Shown: positions 16,898-55,393 of the stretch, one piece after another
Numbering within the stretch: position 1 is the stretch's first letter
Layout: each line of letters opens with the position of its first letter
From: Squalus acanthias
Lineage: Eukaryota
Assembly: GCA_030390025.1 (NCBI GenBank)
Contig: CM059432.1
Coordinates: 992,001-1,056,000, forward strand
DNA: 64,000 nt
Direction: 5' to 3'
Notes under the pieces: model-generated
What the model saw: only the letters and a program-made list of their open reading frames with translations
The model's database searches: none
What the model was told of the DNA's origin: nothing
Program-made: the position numbers and the translations under genes

Positions 16898-17128
16898 GAT
16901 AATTTTAGGCATGCTGTCATCAATACTCCAGTAACCAGGGAAGACTTCATGTTGTTGTTGAGCAACTTGGAAGATCTACAAATTAGAGCACTTTATTACT
17001 CACAAACACAACGCCTTTCCCTGGGCCTAGTTCAACTTGAGGAAGCCTCAGTTTCCGGAACTGAAAGTCCTGCTGCGAATGTGGAAGTGTGCTCGTGTCC
17101 ACCAAACTACTTGGGAGATTCATGCCAG
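16898..17128 (+). CDS. LAMA3: Laminin alpha-3 exon (end of L4, split LE resumes); last alpha-3B-specific exon
   Basis: ttaacag|GAT...CAG|gtagaa. Encodes DNFRHAVINTPVTREDFMLLLSNLEDLQIRALYYSQTQRLSLGLVQLEEASVSGTESPAANVEVCSCPPNYLGDSCQ; 231 nt. Confidence 0.95.
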
Positions 17129-17689
17129 GTAGAACCCTGAGATACATATTTTCTGTGATATGCAACACCTCAGTTTTTAATTTTTTTTGAAATATTGAAC
17201 ATTTAGATAATTGTATACAAAAGCAAAATACTGCGGATGCTGGAAATCTGAAATAAAAACAGAAAATGATAATTGTATGTTTTGCTGTTACTTGCCTGTG
17301 GCATAAACTGTTGTTTAAAATCCTACTTTTCCTGATTTTTAACATTGTGGAACAGGCATTCTTCTGAATGGGACCTGTTAACCTAATAACTATGTCACAG
17401 GGGTCGATTCTGCCGGGATAGAACTTGCTTATAAGTTAGTCTTGGAACTTCTTACAAAAGTGCATCGGTTCTTATTTCTGTACGACTTTACACCACAAGT
17501 CTGTGGATATGTAAAGATTCTGTTTATTGATAATTCTTAAAAAGTGTTAACGGCCTCAAATAACTTTTGTTTCCAGTTGTGGATATATTAGATTATTGGT
17601 TTAGCTTTTTTATACGTTGATTGTGTATCTGGTGGCCCAGTCTGCTTAGTAATGTAGCAACTGTACGGGCTAAATAAATACTACATTTT

Positions 17690-24969: not shown

Positions 24970-25135
24970 CAGCTCCCCCCAGAATCCGCTTAGGAGGTGT
25001 GGACGAGACGGTGCGGCGGTCTGATGGGCCGGCCGGAGCGGCTCTTGTAGGACGCCGGTTGACGTGGAACGGCCGGGCGTGGAGCAGCCGGGTGAACCGG
25101 CTTGAGGGCAGGTCAGCCGCGTGGAGGTGGACGAG

Positions 25136-28100
25136 CTACAGGGACCTGCTCACCGGGCTCCGAGTGTGCTGGCTTGAGTCAGTCCACCGACACTTTTTCG
25201 GTCCTGTCGCCCACTTGCAGGGTGAAAAATTTGTCCCCAGCCTGTAGGGCCTGTCGTACGGGGGTTGAAGGGGTCCGCGGTGGGCGTCGTGCCGGACAAA
25301 GACAAACCGTGCCTGGTGCAGGCTTAGTGGGACGTGTGAGGTGGATTCGCCGTGCCGGGCAATGGGCACCGGGGCGAACTGCAGCGCTGGTAAGGCAAAG
25401 TCGTGGCGTTGCTGGTCGGCTGACCAGGGTGTCGTGGTGGTGGGCAGGAACTCGCCGGGTACGCGCAGCGGCTGACCGTACACGAGCTCTGCTGCCGATG
25501 CGTGGAGGTCTTCTTTAACCGCGGTGCGCAGGCCGAGGAGGACCCACGGAAGTCGGTCGGTCCAGGCGCCGTCTTGGAGGCTGGCTCGAAGAGATACCTT
25601 CAAGGATCTGTGGAACCGCTCACACAGTCCGTTGGCTTGGGGGTGGTATGCTGTGGTGCGGTGAATGGTCACCCCGAGATTGCATGCGACGGCGGTCCAG
25701 AGTTCAGAGGTAAATTGCGGACCTCTGTCCGACGTCATGTCGGAGGGGACGCCGAACCGTGCGACCCAGGTGCTCACGAAGGCTCTGGCGATGTCGGCGG
25801 TGGTGGTAGAGGTCAGTGGAATTGCCTCAGGCCAGCGTGTGGTGCGGTCAACGATGGTCAGCAAGTGCGTGTGGCCTTGCGACGGCGGCAGGGGCCCGAC
25901 GATGTCCATGTAGATGTGGTCGAATCTCCGCGAGAGGACGGTAAACTCCTCGAGGGGCGCTTTCGTGTGTTGCTGTACCTTGGCCCGTTGGCAGGCTAGG
26001 CAGGAGTTGGCCCAAGTACACACATCCTTGCGAAGGCCGCGCCAGACAAAGCGGTTGGCTACCAATTTGATGGATGCGCGGGCGCCGGGGTGGGAGAGGT
26101 TGTGGAGAATGTCGAATACCCGGCGGCGCCAGGACGCTGGGACGACGGGCCGAGGTTGACATAGGGATATGTCGCACTTGACCGTGACTGCAGTCGGGCC
26201 ACAGGCGACGTCGGCCAGGCGTAGCCCTGGTAGGTTGGTGGGTGCGGAGAGCAGATCAGGGTCGATGATCTGGTCTGCTGCGAGTTGAGCGTAGTCGACT
26301 GCTAGGTGTGCGGCGTGGATGGCGGGGCGGGAGAGGCAGTCGGCTACCACATTGTCTCGGCCGGAGACGTGTTGGATGTCCGTGGTGAACTCGGACACTG
26401 CCGCGAGCTGGCGCTGCTGCCTGGCGGACCAGGGGTCGGTTGTCTTTGCCATTGCGAATGTCAGGGGCTTGTGGTCGACAAACGCAGTGAAGGGGTGGCC
26501 CTCAAGCAAAAACCGGAAATGGCGGACCGCCAGGAACAGCGCGAGGAGCTCGCGGTCGAAGGTGCTGTACTTGACCTCCGGGGGGCGTAGTTGGCGGCTG
26601 AAGAAGGCAAGTGGTTGCCAGGCGCCGTCGACCCACTGCTCATACACAGCGCCGACCGCGTGGTCGGAGGCGTCCGTGGTGAGCGCTACCCTGGCATTGG
26701 GCCGTGGGTGGGCGAGCAGGGTGGTGTTGGCGAGCGCGGTCTTGGTGGAATCAAAGGCGGCGGAAGCGTCTGCCGTCCATTCGACCGCCATCTTGCCGCT
26801 CCTGCCCTGGAGGGCTTCATACAGGGGCCTCATGAGGGACGCCGCTTTGGGGATGAAGCGGTTATAGAAATTCACCATCCCGAGGAACTCCTGGAGGCCT
26901 TTGATGGTGGTGGGGCGGGGAAATTGTTGGACGGCCTGCACCTTGGTGGGCAGGGGAATGGCCCCAGCATGGGTGATGTGGTGGCCGAGGAAGTCGATCT
27001 TGTCCAGGCCGAACTGGCATTTGGCTGGGCTGAGGATGAGCCCGTGGTCGCTGAGGCGCCCGAACAGGATGCGAAGGTGTTCGAGGTGTTCCTGCTTGGA
27101 GGAACTGGCTACCAGGATGTCGTCCAGGTAGACGAACAGGAACTTCAGGTCCCGAAGGACCGAGTCCATGAGCCGTTGGAATGCCTGGGCCGCGTTTTTG
27201 AGGCCGAAGGGCATCCGCAGGAACTCGAACAGGCCGAAGGGGGTGATTACGGCCGTCTTGGGGACGTCCGCGGGGTGGACGGGGACTTGGTGGTAGCCGC
27301 GCACCAGGTCGACCTTGGAAAAGACTGAGCGGCCGGCCAGTCTAGCCGAGAAGTCCTGAATGTGCGGCACGGGGTACCGATCAGGGGTGGTGGCGTCATT
27401 GAGGCGGCGGTAATCCCCACAGGGGCGCCAACCTCCGCCTGGTTTGGGGGCGATGTGGAGTGGGGAGGCCCAGGGACTGTTGGAGCGGCGGATGATGCCG
27501 AGCTGTTCCATGGTGGCAAACTCGGTCCGCGCGATCTCCAGTTTGGCCGGGTCCAGCCTGCGGGCGTGGGCGTACACTGGGGGGCCTGTGGTGGGGATGA
27601 AGTGTTCCACCCCGTGTTTGGCGGCCTCCGCGGAGAAGGTCGGATTGGTAAGGGCCGGGAATTCGGCCAGGAGTGCCGAGTAGTCATCCGTGGCCCGGGC
27701 GTGGCACTGTGACGCCATGTCGGCGGGTTGACGGGGGGCCATGGCGCCCAGGATGGGGGACATGGTGTTCATGTCCACGAGGCGGTGACGAGGGATGTCT
27801 ACCAGTAAGCCGTGGGCACACAGGAAATCTGCGCCGATGAGGGGGGAGAGCACCTTGGCAGTGATGAACTCCCATCGGTAGCGGTGACCAGCGAGGTCGA
27901 GGGTGACTGTCCGGGTGCCATACGTCCGGATTTCCGAGCCGTTAGCAGCAGCCAGCACCGGTCCTCGTTCGCCCTTTTGGATGTCGAGGGAGGAGGCCGG
28001 GATGATGCTGTGCTGAGCTCCAGTGTCGCACAGGAACCGGCGGCCGGTTTTGTCATCCGTGACGAACAGCAGGGAGTCCGCGTGGCCCACGGCCATCGCG

Positions 28101-41000: not shown

Positions 41001-41509
41001 CAGCCTGTTCAATCTTTCAAAAACAGAAATGATAGGTAAGGGTATCAAGGGATATGGAGCAAAGGCAGGTAAATGGAATTAAGATACAGATCAGCCATGA
41101 TCTAATAGAATGGCGGAACAGGCTCGCGGGGCTGAATGGCCTCCTCCTGTTCTGATGTTCCTATGGAAGGCAAGTCAAGCTAGGAACTAATAGGAGAGTG
41201 AAGACAGCAATGAAAAATAGTGTTTAAAAAATGGAGAACATTTTCTGCTCTAAAAGCCTTGAATTAAAAAGCATGGGTTCACTTGAAAGAAGAATTTGGT
41301 TACTTTTCTAATATCATACCACACTTTTAAAAAGTATAATTGAGGTTATTTGAGTTCTTATAAATGTATAAACCGAAGAGGTGAACACTGCTTTGTGTCC
41401 TTCATTGTTTGTGTCTCTATGACGATAACCACGGTGGAGGAGAATTAAATATGCTAAGGGGAAAGCAATGCATCAGCGTTTCAGTTTTCCAAATAAATCG
41501 CGTTGATGT

Positions 41510-41809
41510 GAAATGACTGAGCGATTGTCTAGACACGTCTGGGTCTCGACGTGGACAGGGTGTGTGGCTGCCACACCTTCCAACTAGTACTAACTAGACC
41601 TGCGAATGCGTTGTCTGATTTGTCAGAGTTGTATTAGTGATTATAGCTGTTATAAATCCTGAGTCAGAGGGAGGCAGAGTTTAAAGGTGGAGTATCAGAC
41701 ACCTTGTGAGTCCGATTCAACCCGAGCACAGAGAGCGGGTATAAAAGCGGCATTCGGTGGTGAACTCCCCAACTTGAAGTATTCCCCTGCGAGACTTGAG
41801 GGCTGAAGG
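41510..41809 (+). promoter_or_regulatory. LAMA3: Putative internal LAMA3A promoter and 5' UTR
   Basis: TATAAAA at 41740-41746, AP-1 TGAGTCA at 41660-41666 and palindromic Smad element GTCTAGAC at 41527-41534, in TE-free sequence just upstream of ATG 41810. Confidence 0.75.
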
Positions 41810-41980
41810 ATGCCCACGTATTTGGTGTGGATGAAGAGACTCCGTGTCCTGGCTGTCTTGTTATCGATTATTGGGCCATGTTTGGCCGGGATGAGACCAG
41901 CGGATGAGCCAAAGAATATACCACAGACTCCACAAAATGTTTTATTGAATAGCAGCAGTAACAGAATCAACTGCAGACAG
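41810..41980 (+). CDS. LAMA3: Alternative first coding exon of the short isoform laminin alpha-3A (signal peptide)
   Basis: ATG...CAG|gtaaca, 57 codons: MPTYLVWMKRLRVLAVLLSIIGPCLAGMRPADEPKNIPQTPQNVLLNSSSNRINCRQ. Phase 0 joins exon 45288 in frame. Sits in the same intron as the mammalian alpha-3A exon. Confidence 0.88.
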
Positions 41981-43726
41981 GTAACATTCTGTGATAGGAT
42001 ATTGTGAAACAACTCAACTAAACTTAAATGAGAAGGAAGACAGTTTTAAAGTTTAAAGAAACCTTTAGTTTTGTGTGCATGAGCTCAGTTCTATCTCCAA
42101 TTGCATAAGATACTTTTAGAATATGAAAATGTGCTCCAGAATTGTTTATTACCATCGGGTTTTTGTAGTTGTGTTTTGGGATGTAGGTTAATGTTTACTT
42201 TAATTGCTATTTGATACGTTTAGTTAAAAAATCTATGAACTTGAAATTAGCTGATACGTTTCTAAGTATTGTTGTGGCTACATTGGACTAGAGGAATGAC
42301 CAAGATCGCATAAAATTTGATGGGAGTGAAATATTAAAAAAATGATGAGCTTTTTTCTCAACTGAGGAGAATTGTTTTTACGCAGCGAAATGTTATGATC
42401 TGGAACGCGCTGCCTGAAAGGGCGGTGGAAGCAGATTCAATAGTAACTTTCAAAAGGGAATTGAATAAATACTTGAAAGGGAAAAATTTGCAGGACTGTG
42501 GGGAAAGAGCAAGGGGGGGGAGTGGGACTAGTTGGAGAGCTCGTTCAAAGAGCCGGCACAGGCTCGATGGGCCGAATGGCCTCCTCCTGTGCTGTGAGAT
42601 TCCGTGATTTAGAAATATATAGAAGCTGCAACACAAAAACAGCCCATGTTGATGTTTACCCTCCACACGAGCAATTAGTCCGAATCATGTTTACCCACCC
42701 TGCTCCTCTATCCCTTAACTTCTTTTCTTTCATCCTCTTCTCCAATCTAATCTTGAATGTTGACACAGTTTTTGCCTCAATCACTAATCCTGAAAGTGAA
42801 TTCCACAGCCGCACGATCCTCTGTGAAGACATTTCTCTTGCACTCTGTTCTAAATCTCTTATATTTAATCTTGTATCAGTGAAAGGAAAGAAAGAACACT
42901 TATTTCAATCAGATCTTTCACAGCCTCAGGACGTCCCAAAGCACTTCACTGCCAATCAAGTTTTTTTTTGAAGTGTGGTCACTGTTGTAATATAGGGAAA
43001 GATGGCTGCCAGTTTGCGCACAGCAAGATCCCACAAACAGCAATGAGATAAATGACCAGATAATCTGTTTTGGTGGAGTTGGTTGAGGGATAAGTATTGG
43101 CGGGGAGCACTCCCCTGCTCTTCGTTGAAATGGTGGCTGTAGGATCCAACTGACAGGGCAGATGGGGCCTCGGTTTAATGTCTCATCCCAAAAATAGCAC
43201 CTCTGACAGTGAAGTGCTCCCTCAGTACTGCACTGGGAGTGTCGGCCTAGATTATGTGCTCAAGTCTCTGGAGTGGGTCTTGAACCCACAACCTTCAGAC
43301 TCAGAGGTGAGAGCGCTGCCCACTGAGGCACGGCTAACACCTATGGCCTCACATTCTAGACCCCTCACCTACTGGAACCAGTTTGCTGCTATATACCCTG
43401 TCCCGTCCTTTCATAATTTTAAATACTTCTATCATATCGGCCGTAAAGCCCCAATTCTTCAAGACTTACTTTGTATTTGTATTTGCTCACACCAGGCAGT
43501 ATCCCAATGACCCTGCGTTGTACCCTCCCTAAAGTCTCATTATCCTTCCTGTGTGTGGAGCCCAATACTGCACACAATACTCGAACTGAGGACTTACCAT
43601 AGAATCATAAGAAGTTTACGGCACAGAAGCAGGCCATTTGGCCCAAGTTGGTTATGATGGTTTTATAACTAGTTTCTTTTATTCTCTTTTCTCTTTCTTT
43701 ATCTTGGGAACAAATGTTAGCTTATT

Positions 43727-45240
43727 ACATACAATTACAGCACAGAAACAGGCCATTCGGCCCAACTGGTCCAGGCCGGTGTTTCTGCTCCACACGAGAC
43801 TCCTCCCACCCCTCTTCATCTCACCCCATCACCATATCCTTCTATTCCTCTCTCCCTCAGGTGCTTATCTAGCTTCCCCTTAAATACATCTATGCTATTC
43901 GCCTCAACTATTCCTTGTGGTAGCGAGTTCCACGTTCTAACAACTCTGGGTAAAGAAGTTTCTTCTGAAATCCATATTGGATTTATTACTCACTATCTTA
44001 TATTTATGGCCTCTAGTTTTGGTCTCCTCCACAAACAGAAACATTTTCTCTACGTTTACCCTATCAAACCCCTTCATAAATTTAAAGACCTCTATCAGGT
44101 CACCCCTCAGTCTTCTCTTTTCTAGAGAAAAGAGCCCCAGCCTGTTCAGCCTTTCCTGATAAATATAATCTCTCAGTTCTGGTTTCATCCTTGTAAATCT
44201 TTTTTTGTACCTTCTCTGGTGCCTCTATATCCCTTTTTGTAATATGGAGACCAGAACTGTACACAGTGCTCCATGTGTGGTCTAACCAAGGTTCTATACA
44301 AGTTTGACATAACTTCTCTTGCTTTTCAATTCTATCCCTCTAGAAATGAACAACAGTGCTTTGTTTGCTTTTTTTAATGGCTTTATTGTGGCTTTATTAA
44401 CCTGCGTCACTACTTTTAGTGATTTGTGTATCCGTATTAAGTGCCACAGTCTCATTTAATAGCTCTCAGAACGTTGCAAGAGAGATTAGATGTTTGTTTG
44501 TCGTACTTTTCATACATATCTCAGGGGATGGGAGATCAGAGATCAGGGAGAGACAATTATGAAAGCAAATAGTATGTTGGCCTTTATTACAAAAGGATTT
44601 GAGTATAAGAGTAAAGACGTCTTACTGCAATTATATAGGGCCCTGGTGAGACCACACCTGGAGTATTGTGTACAGTTTTGGTCTCCTTCCCTAAGGAAGG
44701 ATATACTTGCCATAGAGGGAGTGCAACGAAGGTTCACCAGACTGGTTCCTGGGATGGGGGGGATTGTCCTATGAGGGGAGATTGAGTAGACTAGGCCTTT
44801 ATTCTCTTGAGTGTAGAAGAGTGAGAGGTGATCTCATTGAAACATACAAAATTCTTACAGGGCTTGACAGGGTAGATGCAGGGAGGATGTTTCCCCTGGC
44901 TGGGGAGTCTAGAACCAGGGGTCACAGTCTCAGAATAAGGGGTCGGCCATTTAGGACTGAGATGAGGAGAAATTTCTTCACTCAGAGAGGGTGGTGAATC
45001 TTTCGAATTCTCTACCTCAGAGGGCTGTGGAGGCTCAGTCATTGAGTATATTCAAGACAGAGATCGATAGATATTTGAATATTAAGGGAATCAAGGGATA
45101 TGGGGATCGGGCGGGAAAGTGGAGATGAGGTAGAAGATCAGCCATGAATTCATTGAATGGTGGAGCAGGCTCGAGGGGCCAAATGGCTGACTCCTGCTCC
45201 TATTTCTTATGTACCCCTAGATCCCTCTGCTCCTCTAACC
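43727..45240. mobile_element. CR1 fragment (-) interrupted by a chimeric CR1 insertion (+, ~44437-45210)
   Basis: The host reads ...gatttgtgtatccgta and resumes gtacccctagatccctctgc at 45211. Confidence 0.8.
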
Positions 45241-45287
45241 CAGAGTAAATGATGGCTTACACTTTCTTCAATGTTGATCTTTAATAG

Positions 45288-45401
45288 CGATGTGTCGTTG
45301 GATACTACAGAGAACGGAAAGGCTTCTTCCTGGGCCGGTGTGTTCCTTGTCGCTGTCATGGACATTCAGACCAATGCGCAGATCGATCCGGAAGATGTAC
45401 T
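45288..45401 (+). CDS. LAMA3: Laminin alpha-3 exon, first exon shared by alpha-3A and alpha-3B
   Basis: ttaatag|CGA...ACT|gtaagt. Encodes [38 protein letters not shown]; 114 nt, phase 0-0. Confidence 0.95.
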
Positions 45402-45901
45402 GTAAGTAACCAGATATAAATTTTGATTGCATTGTACAAAATATTACAAAGTATTTACAGCACAGAAACAGGCCATTCGGTCCAACTGCTCCGTGCCGGT
45501 GTTTATGTCCCACACCAGCCTCCTCCCGCCCCTCTTCATCTCACCCCATCAACACATCTTTCTATTCCTTTATCTCTCATGTACTTATCTAGCTTCCCAT
45601 TAAATGCATCTATGCTATTCGCCTCAATCACTCCCTGTGGTAGCGAGTTCCACATTCTCACCACTCTCTGGGTAAAGAAGTTTCTCCTGAATTCCCTATT
45701 GGATTTATTAGTGACCATCTTATGTTTATGGCCCCTAGTTCTGGTCTCCCCCCACAAGTGGAGATATCGTCTAGCCAATCGAACCCTTTCATAATCTTAA
45801 AGACTTCGATCAGGTCTGTAAATCGCTTGAACATGATACCCGACAACAATAAAAACCTCTGCTTAGAAATTGCGGGTTTTGTGGCCTAGAAATTCGGCCT
45901 A

Positions 45902-46750
45902 AGAACATAAGAATTAGGAGCAGGAGTAGGCCATACGGCCCCTCGAGCCTGCTCTGCCATTCAATAAGATCATGGCTGATCATCGACCTCAACTCCACTT
46001 TCCCGCCCGATCTCCATATCCCTTGATTCCCCTAGAGTCCAAAATTCTATCGATCTCAGCCTTGAATATACTCAAAGACTCAGCATTTACAGCCCTCTGA
46101 GGCAGAGAATTCCAAAGATTCACAACCCTCTGAGTGAAGAAATTCCTCCTCATCTCAGTCCTAAATGACCGACCTCTTATACTAAGACTATGCCCCCTAG
46201 TTCTAGACTCTCCAGCCAGGGGAAACAACCTCTCAGCATCTACCCTGTCAATCCCCCTCAGAATCTTGTATGTTTCAATGAGATCACCTCTCATTCTTCT
46301 AAACTCCAGTGAGTATAGGCCCATTCTACACAATCTCTCATCATAGGACAGCCCTCTCTTCCCAGGAACCAATCTAGTGAACCTTCGTTGCACCGCCTCC
46401 AAGGCAAGTATATCCTTCCTTAGATAAGGAGACCTAAACTGTGCACAGTACTCCAGGTGTGGTCTCACCAAGGCCCTGTACAATTGTAGCAAGACTTCCT
46501 TACTCTTGTACTCCAACCCCCTTGCAATAAAGGCCAACATGCCATTTGCCTTCCTTATTGCTTGCTGTACCTGCATGCTAGCTTTCTGTGTTTCTTGCAC
46601 GAGGATACCCAAATCTCTCTGAACACCAACATTTGAAAGTTTCTCACCATTTAAAAAATATTCTGTTTTTCTATTCTTCCTACCAAAGTGAATAACCTCA
46701 CATTTCCCTACATTATACTCCATCTGCCACCTTACTGCCCACTCACTTAG
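45902..46750 (-). mobile_element. CR1 LINE 3' fragment with open RT C-terminal frame
   Basis: ORF 45989-46771 contains WQMEYNVGKCEVIHFG...LVRPHLEYC. Confidence 0.9.
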
Positions 46751-49510
46751 TCTAAATCTGACTCTCTTCATTGAACACTATCAGTTGTGTTTGCATTTAA
46801 TTTGTTGATAACCATAAATTGTTCAAACCTAAATATAGGTTTAATCCCATCCATGGAGACTCTTTGCTCAATGATAAAATGTCATGAATTATCCTGACCA
46901 TTTATGACTCTTGAGACCAACTACTGCGCTCCAGCATGAACTGGTCTTAATAGGAGTAATTCCACAGCCACACGCTCCCAGCATCAGTGTGGGTCACAGT
47001 ATCAGGGCTACGATGTTCTAACCCTATCTTCTACCCTTCATTGCTGCAAGCGCAGCTTCCCCACTGGAAGCACGGGATCAAGAAATTAACCTTTATGTTC
47101 AAATTTTTGGGCTTTGGGAACCAGGGACATTCGGCACAGTCCGAGGTGCCCCCAATATTGGGCCTCGGGCCTCATTTCAATGGAGCCAGCCTGGCGCGAG
47201 GAGCCAGCCCGAGTAAACCAAGATCGGGCATCTGCTCGCGTCGCAGCAGCCCTCAGGCAAGTGAGGGTCTGGAGAGCAGAGGTCGGAGAGGGGGAATCGG
47301 AGGGCGGTGCGGAGGGACGGGAGATTGGAGATCAGGGAGAGGGACTCGAAGCCCGGGAGATCAGAGGTCGGGGAGGGAGAGGGAGAGGAAGTGTGTGCAC
47401 ATTACCGGCCAGAAGTGCACTGCCCGCCATGTTGGGTAAGGACAGACAACAGGATTTGTATATGGGGCCTAACTCCTGCTTGAGGTCCCCTCTCCTATGG
47501 GGAAGGAGTGGGACTGATTGGAGAGCTCATTCAAAGAGCCAGCACAGGCACGATGGGCTGAATGGCCTCCTTCTCTGCTGTGCGATTCTATGAATTTCGC
47601 AGAACACATTATTGTGATACATTTCTTGAATACAACATAGATTTAATTTTAAATGGTTTGTAACATGGTTTTATAGATTCTGTTTTATTTTATGCAGGTT
47701 TTGTTCTAAAATCCTTTCTCAAAAGCATTTTGCTTAAACTGGTCTGCTGTAATAGTGCAGTTAAATAGGAATGTAAACTCATCTGAAACAGTGACTCACA
47801 CTGTGATTCACTGGTGGATTTAGATTAGTTAGACAGGGTTGGGCTCGGACTAGTTGAGGTTATAGTAAGATATGTATGGAAAGTACGACAAACAAACATC
47901 TAATCTCTCTTGCAATGTTCTGAGAGCTATTAAATGAGACTGTGGCACTTAATACATTCGAATAAATGTAAGAAGGAGGTTTGCTCAGTGTGTGAACCAT
48001 TCTGTATAGAATTAATGTAATATAAAGAAAATACTATAAAGAAAATAAACCCTGAACAAGGGCTTATTGTGAACTTCCAGTAGTCACTCCTTGCAGTGCG
48101 GTTTCTCAAGGGTATTTGATTGAATCGCACATTTTAAAAGAGAACTGTAAACATCTACTGATGACTGATATGGCGAGGCGTGAAGTCATGATGCTGAGAG
48201 TGACAACACTCGGGAACAAAGTAAACGGAGATCTATTGATGTGAGTCAAGACTTTTAAAAAAAAATCGTTAATGTATCTTCAGGGTAAATTGGTCTTAAT
48301 TTTTAATCCAGCTGTTTCTGCCTCACTCCAGCCCGTCAAGTGCAGCATGTCTATACTGCCTGAGGATAGGGATCAGGCCACAGATGGGTGGGAACATGCA
48401 GCTGCGATCTTACAAGGTGGAGCCTTGTTGATATAGCTGGAGTGCGAAGATTTTGTTCCAATGATATGTTTTATTTGGCATTCTGTTAGTAGAATTGTAA
48501 TTAGTAACTTTTTTCAGTTTTTTTATATATACTTTTATTAGACAAATTGTAATCTCAATGGTTCTGTCACTAACATAGAATTTAACAACACAGAAAGAGG
48601 CCATTCGAACCAACATGCCTGTCCTGGCTCTTTGAAAGCGCTATCCAATTAGTTCCACTCCCCCTACTATATATCCAATTCTCTTTTAAAAGTTATTGTT
48701 GATTCTGTTTCCACCGCCCTTTCAGGCAGTGCATTTCAAATCATAACAACTCTCTGTGTAAAAGAAATCTCTCCTCGTCTCTCCTCTGGTTCTTTTGCCA
48801 ATTACATTAAATCTGTGTCCTCTGGTTACCGACCGTCCTGCCCGTGGAAATAGTTTCTTCCTATTTACTCTATTAAATCCTTTCCGAATTTTAAGTACCT
48901 CTATCAAATCTCCCCTTAACCTTCTCTGCTCAAAGAAGAACAATCCCAGCTTCTCCAGTCTCTCCACATAACTGAAGTCCCTCATCCCTGGAACTATTCT
49001 GTAAATCTCCTCTGCCCCCTCTCCAAGCCTTGACATCCTTCCTAAAGTGTGGTGCCCAGATTGGACACAATACTCCAGCTGGGGCCTAACCAATGATTTA
49101 TACAGGTTCAGCATAACTTCCTTGTTTTTGTACTTTATGCCTCTATTTCTAAAGTCAAGGATCCCATATGCATTTTTAACAGCCTTATTGACTTATCCTG
49201 CCACCTTCAAAGATTTGTGTATGTGAACCCGCAGGTCTCTTCCTGCACCTGCTTTTAAAATTGTACCATTTAGTTTATATTGCCTCTCCTCATTCTTCCT
49301 CCTAAAATGTATCACTTCACACTTCTCTGCGTTAAATTGCATCTGCCACGTGTCTGCCCATTTTACCGGTCTGTCTATGTCCTCCTGATGTCTGTTAATA
49401 TCCCCCTCACTGTTCACCACGTTTCGATCTCAAAATTAAAGTACGCAGTTCCTTTAAAGCAAGTTGAATGAATATTATGTTGAATAAACTGCTGCTCTTT
49501 TCTGTAACAG

Positions 49511-49629
49511 GATTGTAAACATAACACAGAAGGGGATCACTGTGAGCGATGCCAGTCGGGTTTCTTTGGAGATGCTGCCCGAGGTGCCTGCAGTCCCTGT
49601 CCCTGTCCCCACACTCAACCCTCCAACAA
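49511..49629 (+). CDS. LAMA3: Laminin alpha-3 exon (LE)
   Basis: ctgtaacag|GAT...AA|gtaagg. Encodes [39 protein letters not shown]; phase 0 to 2. Confidence 0.95.
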
Positions 49630-49743
49630 GTAAGGTTCACATGATTGAAACACTGAAATAGAACGCACACATTGACTGATTACAACAATTATTCCTACCT
49701 CAGCTTTATTTATTGATAACCTTTAATCATTTTTCTTTTACAG

Positions 49744-49824
49744 CTTTGCCACGCGATGTGGCGAGATTAATGGCGTCATGCAGTGCGTGTGTAAACCAGG
49801 CTACACCGGCTCAAGATGTGAGAG
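49744..49824 (+). CDS. LAMA3: Laminin alpha-3 exon (LE)
   Basis: ttttacag|C...AG|gtcggt. Encodes (N)FATRCGEINGVMQCVCKPGYTGSRCE(R); phase 2-2. Confidence 0.95.
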
Positions 49825-50792
49825 GTCGGTGTTTGTTTTTTTGAACACAGTGACAGTCAGGTGACTGGTAGAATTGAGATTAAGAGATTGAGTAGATTGG
49901 GCCTATATTCTCTGGAGTTTAGAAAAATGAGAGGTGATCTCAATGAAATGTATAAAATTCTTACAGGGCTTGACAGGGTAGATGCTGAGATGCTGTTTCT
50001 CCCTGGCTGGAGAGTCTAGAACCAGGGGTCACAGTCTCAGGATAAGGGGTCGGCCATTTAAGACTGAGATGAGGAGGTGAACCTGTGGAATTCTCTACCC
50101 CAGAGGGCTGTGGATGCTCAGTCTTTGAGTATATTGAAGATTGAGATCGATAGATTTTTGGACTCTAGGGGAATCAAGGGATATGGGGATCGGGCGGGAA
50201 AGTGGAGTTGAGGTCGAGGATCAGCCATGATCTTATTGAATGGCAGAGCAGGCTCGAGGGGCAGTATGGCCGACTCCTGCTCCTAAATCTAAAAGGGTAT
50301 TGGTTCATAATTCATAAGAGCTATAAATATGAGTAAATAGAAAGATTCAGAATAGTCGAGAACATTTTATTTTGCTTGACACTAAATTAAGTTGTTTTCT
50401 TAAAGCTAGATTGATTGTTGTGATCTGGAGCACGCTGCCTGAAAGGGCGGTGGAAGCAGATTCAATAGTGACTTTCAAAAGGGAATTGGATAAATATTGA
50501 AGGGGAAAAAATTGCAGGGCTTTGGAGAAAGAGCGAGGAGAGTGGAACTAATTGGAGAGCTCTTCCAAAGAGTCGGCACAGGCATGAGGGGCCGAATGGC
50601 CTCCTTCTGTGCTGTATCATTCTATGATTCTATGAGGGTGAGACTTTGTATCCTTTCACTGAATGGCGCAGTGAACTGGTAAAGTGCAACACCAGGACAC
50701 CGATTATGTAGCACGCTAATTTAACAGATGCCAAACCTTGGCATTTTTTCAGAAGCATAAGTCAAGAAAAGCAATGATTTTAGGAACATGAA

Positions 50793-51231: not shown

Positions 51232-51353
51232 GTGTGCTCCAGGTTATTTCGGGAACCCTCGGAAGATAGGGAGTGAATGTCGGCGATGCCAGTGTGGCAA
51301 TTCAAACTCTACAAGTTGTGACCCACTGACCAGTCAATGCAGCAACTGTCCAG
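51232..51353 (+). CDS. LAMA3: Laminin alpha-3 exon (LE, truncated last repeat)
   Basis: ctgcag|G...CAG|gtaatg. Encodes CAPGYFGNPRKIGSECRRCQCGNSNSTSCDPLTSQCSNCP; phase 2 to 1. The donor position is less certain. Confidence 0.88.
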
Positions 51354-54521: not shown

Positions 54522-55142
54522 GGTGTGTGGGTGTGAGTGAGTGCGTGTGTGTGTGCGTGCGTGTGTGTGTGCGTGCGTGAGTGTGTGCGTGCGTGAGTGT
54601 GTGCGTGCATGCGTGAATGCGTGCGTGCGTGAGTGCGTGTGTGCGTGCGTGCGTGAGTGCGTGCGTGCGTGAGTGTGTGCGTGCGTGCGTGTGTGCGTCC
54701 ATGAGTGGGTGTGTGGGTGGGTGGGGGTGGGTGGGTGTGTGTGCGTGCGTGAGTGTGTGCGTCCATGAGTGGGTGTGTGGGTGGGTGGGGGTGGGTGGGT
54801 GTGTGTGCGTGCGTGAGTGTGTGCGTGCGTGAGTGTGTGCGTCCATGAGTGGGTGTGTGGGTGGGTGGGGGTGGGTGGGTGTGTGTGCGTGCGTGAGTGT
54901 GTGCGTCCATGAGTGGGTGTGTGGGTGGGTGTGTGTGTGCGTCCATGAGTGGGTGTGTGGGTGGGTGTGTGTGTGCGTGCGTGAGTGCGTGTGTGTGTGT
55001 GCGTCCATGAGTGGGTGTGTGGGTGGGTGTGTGTGTGTGTGCGTGAGTGTGTGCGTGCGTGCGTGTGTGCGTCCATGAGTGGGGGTGTGGGTGGGTGGGG
55101 GTGGGTGGGTGTGTGTGTGCGCCTGTGTGTGTGTGTGCATGC
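54522..55142. repeat. Compound (GT)n/(GCGT)n/(GGGT)n microsatellite-minisatellite
   Basis: About 620 bp of GT/GC alternation with recurring gtccatgagtggg anchors. Confidence 0.95.
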
Positions 55143-55393
55143 TTGTAAGTAAAAGGTGTGAAAGCAAATTGGAAATCAGTTGCATTCATAAGTTCCAGTT
55201 CAAAGTTAGAAAATACAGTTCACTTATTTTATTATAAATGCATCAATTTCTTGTTAACTTGAAGATATTTCTTGGTAGATTGGAAACGATTTTTGCTTTG
55301 CCGAAGCCAACAGTGTGAAAAAAACACATCTTGTGTTACAAATGAAATTGTATAAATTTACCCAGAGCGACTCCCTTTGATTCCCCATTTTAG

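Follow-up and report, generated by a model that had tools for sequence, protein, structure and literature searches.

A segment of the laminin gene LAMA3 in Squalus acanthias, positions 41810-41980 of the window (the whole stretch of 64,000 nucleotides that was analyzed), is joined in transcripts to the exon starting at 45288. With a probability that we put at about 0.9, this segment, hereafter exon 1A, is an alternative LAMA3 first exon predicted to provide the initiator Met and the signal peptide for a short chain of the alpha-3A type, probably expressed from a promoter within the intron. Transcription would start inside the 28-kb intron, at or shortly 5' of 41631, and translation would begin at 41810, or at 41831, where the catshark model starts. 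The predicted signal peptide would be cut around CLA/G or LAG/M, and the product would lack the LN domain together with most of the short arm. By analogy with mammals, such a product may serve epithelia as a non-polymerising alpha chain within a laminin-332-type trimer. An initial annotation, made from the sequence, had proposed an alternative alpha-3A-type first exon of LAMA3 in a cartilaginous fish, and this proposal is borne out by the contig join, by the orthologue in a catshark and by the branch point in the mouse.

Host gene and structure of exon 1A

The identity of the host gene was judged from the coding exons on either side of the intron. Exon by exon, the identity is 70-94% to the LAMA3 proteins of Scyliorhinus torazame and S. 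canicula and 78-91% to LAMA3 of Stegostoma tigrinum; the first shared exon is 70-78% identical to shark LAMA3 proteins. The L4b exon, which is the last one specific to alpha-3B, is 91% identical over 77 aa to LAMA3 of S. torazame and Stegostoma tigrinum, compared with 55-59% for cod and bichir LAMA3 and 47-49% for LAMA5 (Varanus alpha-5 47%, Callorhinchus 49%). When an 81-aa query from this exon was searched against 1.84 billion representatives, the best match was a 3459-aa protein (90%, E 7.8e-37), identified by cluster look-up as laminin subunit alpha-3 isoform X2 of Scyliorhinus torazame. Pfam recognized Laminin_B and EGF_laminin on the flanking exons and gave no match in exon 1A, E2 or E5 taken singly, and in a search of PDB the L4b exon matched perlecan only, E5 having no match. 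The exon identities to LAMA3 thus show, as judged by sequence comparison, that the window gene is orthologous to LAMA3 and comes from a shark-like fish belonging to neither Scyliorhinus nor Stegostoma.

The host intron measures 28,159 nt, from the end of the ...GDSCQ exon at 17128 to the start of the RCVVGYY exon at 45288, and exon 1A sits 24.7 kb into these 28.2 kb. The upstream exon ends with the donor TGCCAG/GTAGAA after ...YLGDSCQ, and the downstream exon is preceded by the acceptor ttaatAG and begins in phase 0; the donor at 17128 competes with exon 1A for the acceptor of 45288. The coordinates of all features are collected in the table below.

Exon 1A encodes MPTYLVWMKRLRVLAVLLSIIGPCLAG followed by MRPADEPKNIPQTPQNVLLNSSSNRINCRQ. 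Its ATG at 41810 (+ strand) lies in the context GAAGGATGC, with A at -3, and an in-frame TGA is located two codons 5' of it. From this ATG the frame is open for 57 codons and ends ...AAC TGC AGA CAG immediately before GTAACA, which places the end of the exon at 41980 in phase 0 with the donor CAG/GTAACA; the remaining two frames hold 3 stops each. The ATG, the 57-codon frame, the phase-0 donor and the intron between the GDSCQ and RCVVGYY exons are all located where the initial annotation had placed them. Since the junctions at 41980 and 45288 are both in phase 0, exon 1A joins in frame. A second in-frame ATG at 41831 has T at -3, and the context of the ATG at 41810 is better; the N-terminus resembles a signal peptide with either start. 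By a hand rule for n-, h- and c-regions, a signal peptide is predicted from 3 basic residues, a 9-residue hydrophobic core, and C/A or L/G at -3/-1.

Only one match to 41740-41990 was found in the 3.71-Gb genome, namely the window's own place, which speaks for a unique segment that belongs to no repeat or retrocopy. The readings of exon 1A as a repeat-derived exon and as a retrocopy were therefore rejected, the latter for want of any second copy of 41740-41990 in the genome. The reading as a chance open frame was rejected as well. In a crude control, with criteria picked after the candidate was seen, the two strands of the 64-kb window together yield only 3 loci that combine an ATG frame of >=40 codons, a basic-then-hydrophobic start and small residues at -3/-1; among these, exon 1A alone adds an AG/GTRA donor 35-90 codons on.

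Several side observations concern the exon ends and the surrounding introns. Both alternative upstream exons end in CAG (Gln), and the alpha-3B donor GTAGAA and the exon 1A donor GTAACA are each off consensus at +5 (exon ends with donors at 17126-17134 and 41978-41986). Inside the 28-kb intron, 25096-26587 (+) is GC-rich with long open frames of up to 191 aa. The introns at 42261-46852 and 48575-49435 are dense with interspersed repeats and hold reverse-transcriptase-like open frames, e.g., at 45989-46777 (- strand, 262 aa) and 44490-44997; contigs of 4/4 runs pile up on the intron repeats at depths from thousands to more than 100,000. A long GT/GC-rich simple repeat at 54541-55234 has Cys-Val-rich open frames in several frames and is not coding.

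Table. Positions in the window of exon 1A, its intron and the neighboring LAMA3 exons
Feature	Position	Strand	Basis and remarks
Last alpha-3B-specific exon	16898..17128	+	End of laminin IV/L4b domain, ...NVEVCSCPPNYLGDSCQ; phase-0 donor CAG/GTAGAA; Laminin_B E 7.4e-14; start coordinate 16898 inferred from the acceptor ttaacAG alone
Exon 1A leader	41631..41809 (at least 179 nt)	+	X1 contig; contains no ATG
Exon 1A coding part	41810..41980	+	Frame, RNA contigs, catshark match 34/50, synonymous differences in relatives
Intron of 3A-type transcript	41981..45287 (3307 nt)	+	GTAACA...TTAATAG; repeat-rich; loose ends past 41980 equal 45288-45314
First shared exon (E2)	45288..45401	+	Phase 0 at both ends; start of LE repeats, domain IIIa; 38 protein letters
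Second shared exon	49511..49629	+	Contig pieces, joint 49629 to 49744; Pfam EGF_laminin
Third shared exon	49744..49824	+	..NFATRCGEINGVMQCVCKPGYTGSRCER; start from joint; end inferred from GT at 49825 and frame
Fourth shared exon	51232..51353	+	CAPGYFGNPRKIGSECRRCQCGNSNSTSCDPLTSQCSNCP.; boundaries inferred; 77-82% identical to shark LAMA3

Splicing to the shared exons and the upstream region

Transcript evidence was drawn from a search of public runs that yielded 11 runs, none of them recorded as RNA; two of them, X1 and X2, are labelled "RNA?", which is a guess. A 377-nt contig of run X1 matches 41631-41980 with zero differences and then continues for 27 letters that equal 45288-45314 exactly, a 27-mer present once in the window. 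Run X2, which differs from X1 in both organism and study, has a 186-nt contig that matches 41822-41980 and continues with the same 27 letters bar one. These 27 letters past the joint fall short of the 31 required for calling a contig bridging. A second X1 contig of 984 nt covers 45286-45401 and goes on at 49511-49629; it starts one letter plus AG before 45288 and overlaps the 377-nt contig by 30 letters (CAG plus 27). An overlap of this length and a join cut at 27 letters can be explained by a 31-letter word graph at a point where a second path enters. The alpha-3B exon likewise ends in CAG, and we infer that the alpha-3A-type and alpha-3B forms are both present in X1.

The joint from 49629 to 49744 (GT..AG) was recovered in 4/4 runs compared over 41400-50000, and together with the 984-nt contig it indicates that the runs contain spliced sequence. 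Exon 1A is transcribed, and the donor after 41980 is joined in frame to 45288, which is the junction in RNA that the initial annotation had predicted. Runs X7 and X8, from the same study as X1, have no cover on 41400-42260 though the joint from 49629 to 49744 is present in them; a stretch without cover carries no evidential weight. The depth of the X1 contigs is 103.3 on exon 1A and 138.8 on the shared exon, values that are unsuitable for ranking the isoforms. The one letter by which X2 differs past the joint is a T>G change at 45295, turning RCVVGYY into RCGVGYY; in catshark proteins, this residue is G or A.

The start codon had also been described as preceded by a TATA box. A box, TATAAAAG, is indeed located at 41740-41747, but the RNA contig starts at 41631, 109 nt 5' of the box and 30 nt 5' of an AP-1-like TGAGTCA at 41660-41666, inside the leader. 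Since the box lies within the transcribed contig, a core-promoter role is not supported. Both motifs occur in the window at chance frequency, with 3 occurrences of TATAAAAG against 2.4 expected and 10 of TGAGTCA against 10.7 expected. Where transcription begins cannot be read from a contig, which a few reads are enough to lengthen, so a main start about 30 nt below the TATA box may exist, though it is likewise unsupported. The ratio of observed to expected CpG is 0.70 in 41400-42000 compared with 0.54 in the whole window, a mild rise.

Conservation among sharks and the existing gene models

A counterpart of exon 1A was found in one protein model among the shark LAMA3 records, a hypothetical protein of S. 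torazame (scyTo_0011506, 1676 aa; GCB62716.1, equal to UniProt A0A401NPC6, referred to here as P0152). It is one of 5 members of the S. torazame 90% cluster, the others being the RefSeq isoforms X1/X2/X3 (3460/3459/3458 aa) and a low-quality S. canicula protein (3372 aa). P0152 starts with MRSLCVLVVLLSIIGPCLAGTRPRDTRQTPQNVSLNGNSKRINCRQ followed by KCGIGNYRERNG..., and its beginning, MRSLCVLVVLLSIIGPCLAGTRP...RINCRQ/KCGIGNY, is joined to the shared part at the same point as exon 1A. The two N-termini are identical at 34/50 positions with one 4-residue gap (E 2e-18), and in global alignment the similarity has a z of 15.6, with 0/2000 shuffles as good. This 68% identity is close to that of the adjoining shared exon E2 (70%), E3 and E5 being at 77-79%. 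P0152 thus has an orthologous N-terminus, the join RINCRQ/xC and the same downstream exons; it differs in starting at the Met that matches 41831, in a linker 4 residues shorter and in having no isoform label. Its Pfam content of LE repeats, laminin domains I and II and five LG domains gives the same architecture as mouse alpha-3A.

Over a shorter distance, DNA contigs of two related organisms (X3 and X5) cover the whole 861-nt stretch 41400-42260 with 29 and 28 other letters, respectively, of which 23 and 22 were placed, and with two deletions of 8 and 10 nt, both intronic. Within the 171 coding bases there are 3 differences (41860, 41887 and 41896), all of them synonymous at third positions, and no indel; the ATG, the donor, the TATA box and TGAGTCA are unaltered in both. 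The exon in X2 carries two synonymous changes (41887 and 41902), one codon twice changed (P41L) and one difference that is unplaced. Across X2, X3 and X5, 4 of the 6 placed substitutions are synonymous compared with 21% expected (P = 0.02, on small numbers). In X3 and X5, the 410 nt upstream contain 9 differences and the 277 nt downstream contain 10-11; these flanks are not clearly less conserved than the exon, in a test that has little power at this distance. The conservation of the reading frame in relatives, which the initial annotation had named as one check on its proposal, is seen both in the catshark and in the synonymous differences of X3 and X5.

By these comparisons, exon 1A is kept between two distant sharks, and it is already public in one unlabelled model. 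The suggestion that the exon is hidden from annotation therefore holds in part: the RefSeq isoforms X1-X3 of S. torazame (3458-3460 aa) are all long and, unlike P0152, are without a counterpart of exon 1A, whereas GCB62716.1 already has one. RefSeq LAMA3 models of three sharks (P0001, P0151, P0154, P0153 and P0183) are long or N-terminally cut, and none has a 3A-type start. The Stegostoma tigrinum model has 2610 aa; in the mouse cluster, by contrast, 3A forms are included. For the short isoform, shark annotation seems to have a gap.

Searches among protein cluster representatives returned little for the short N-terminus. The 57-aa exon, compared with longer proteins among these representatives, gave 16 candidates of which none scored, and the E2 frame (43 aa) gave no candidate. 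Residues 1-130 of P0152 gave 11 matches among the representatives with no further 3A-type N-terminus; the best was Stegostoma LAMA3 (2610 aa), which matches in the shared part alone. No 3A-type N-terminus from a ray, a chimaera or a non-mammalian bony vertebrate was seen among the representatives. The same kind of search missed P0152 itself, so its blanks say little.

Comparison with mammals and origin of the exon

In humans, LAMA3A is described as having an internal promoter in intron 38 and its own exon 39, with a product of 1724 aa, and LAMA3B as having 3333 aa, with exon 38 ending at c.4998 (PMC12347647). A variant listed in the same source as c.47 of 3A corresponds to c.4998+1430 of 3B; from these coordinates, exon 38 would end after 1666 codons in phase 0, and exon 39 would encode 57 residues. 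Mouse 3A has 57 residues of its own followed by GCRPGYY, and mouse 3B reads ...GDSCQ/GCRPGYY, so that the branch residue of the two mouse forms is the same as in the shark, GDSCQ/xC..GYY. The mammalian LAMA3A first exon (mouse NP_001334390.1 / CAA58836.1) thus resembles exon 1A in its intron, phase 0, 57 own codons and a start with Met and a hydrophobic leader. The mammalian product retains domains IIIa, I/II and G only, according to PMC2139892 and Pfam, as is predicted of the shark 3A type. Unlike these features, the sequence of the mammalian exon has no detectable similarity to that of the shark. BLASTP of exon 1A against mouse 3A gave no N-terminal match, and the global alignment with the mouse exon has a z of 0.10, with 817/2000 shuffles as good. 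The likeness that the initial annotation had seen to the mammalian exon (an MP start, a second Met, a GxCL motif and a final Q) is accordingly not above chance. The equal length of 57 and 57 codons does stand, but it is partly luck, since the catshark counterpart is 4 residues shorter.

The two exons differ in further respects. The human ATG lies about 1.4 kb into intron 38 (PMC12347647), compared with 24.7 kb for the shark exon, and the mouse exon has no cysteine three residues from its end, where the shark exon has one. This residue, Cys55 (41972-41974, in ...INCRQ), is kept in the catshark model (RINCRQ). It is one residue off from the cysteine at the end of the alpha-3B exon (DSCQ), a cysteine whose usual LE partner the short form lacks; close to the N-terminus, the mature shark chain may thus have an odd, free cysteine. 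Laminin alpha-4 is another short alpha chain that lacks the LN domain (PMC2139892, PMC11260871), but it is encoded by a separate gene, whereas truncation in the shark would arise inside LAMA3, from a second promoter with its own first exon. In literature listings and abstracts, no paper on a 3A isoform outside mammals was found; a rockfish lama3 is listed at 1544 aa with its form unspecified (PMC9504374), and a bioRxiv candidate proved to concern integrin alpha-3a, not laminin.

Could the exon be something other than the beginning of a short chain? One ground for reading it as a cassette or poison exon internal to the long alpha-3B transcript is a pyrimidine-rich stretch ending in CAG at 41610-41626, just 5' of the contig start. 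The X1 contig begins at 41631 with no loose 5' letters and no joint to the 17128 exon, as fits a first exon, and the two letters before it (41629-41630) are TT, not AG. The leader has stops in its frame, including the TGA two codons upstream in the frame of the ATG, and the catshark model starts inside the counterpart of exon 1A. We consider an internal cassette exon so improbable on these grounds that it was rejected. Only slightly more credible, and still very improbable, is a transcribed and spliced exon that is noisy or regulatory, with an incidental open frame and no working protein. Against such an exon, two distant sharks are 68% identical in this frame, a level like that of the adjoining coding exon, the differences in close relatives are synonymous, the other two frames are each interrupted 3 times, and the catshark model joins the exon in frame to a complete laminin chain.

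The origin of the alternative first exon is a separate matter. We regard it as probable that sharks and mammals have the two-promoter design of LAMA3, with a long polymerising 3B form and a short 3A form for laminin-332-type anchoring, from their last common ancestor, and that the 3A exon stayed in its intron with phase, size class and secretory role preserved as its sequence drifted beyond recognition; the design would then be a shared inheritance of cartilaginous and bony vertebrates. A single descent of the shark and mammalian exons is supported by the intron, the branch residue, the phase and the kind of content, not by sequence. It is unlikely that an internal promoter and a signal-peptide exon were recruited twice in the same intron, in which case the design would not be ancestral to jawed vertebrates. 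In favor of two recruitments, signal peptides evolve easily, the peptides of the two exons in shark and mouse resemble each other no more than shuffled sequence does, the length varies by a 4-residue gap even among sharks, and no intermediate taxa with a 3A-type exon were seen among the cluster representatives. These points are to be weighed against the agreement of shark and mouse in intron, branch residue, phase and kind of content, and signal peptides and short linkers diverge fast, so that a loss of similarity is expected over such a distance; one origin is also more parsimonious than two in one intron. The dating of the two-promoter system to the jawed-vertebrate ancestor, as initially proposed, is thus reasonable from the position of the exon, but it draws no support from sequence similarity to the mouse exon.

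Mammalian alpha-3A is a chain of laminin-332, which anchors skin and mucosal epithelia, and its loss leads to junctional epidermolysis bullosa and laryngo-onycho-cutaneous syndrome (PMC12347647, PMC3544776). The gain from the present finding is modest, as the system is well known and a counterpart of the exon is already in one public record. With regard to annotation, one older GenBank model alone has the 3A start among the shark LAMA3 models compared. A 3A-type transcript from the same intron in a shark likely moves the origin of the isoform pair to the base of the jawed vertebrates. It also offers a comparison outside mammals for what is essential in the short N-terminus, which would be a signal peptide and the join rather than the sequence.
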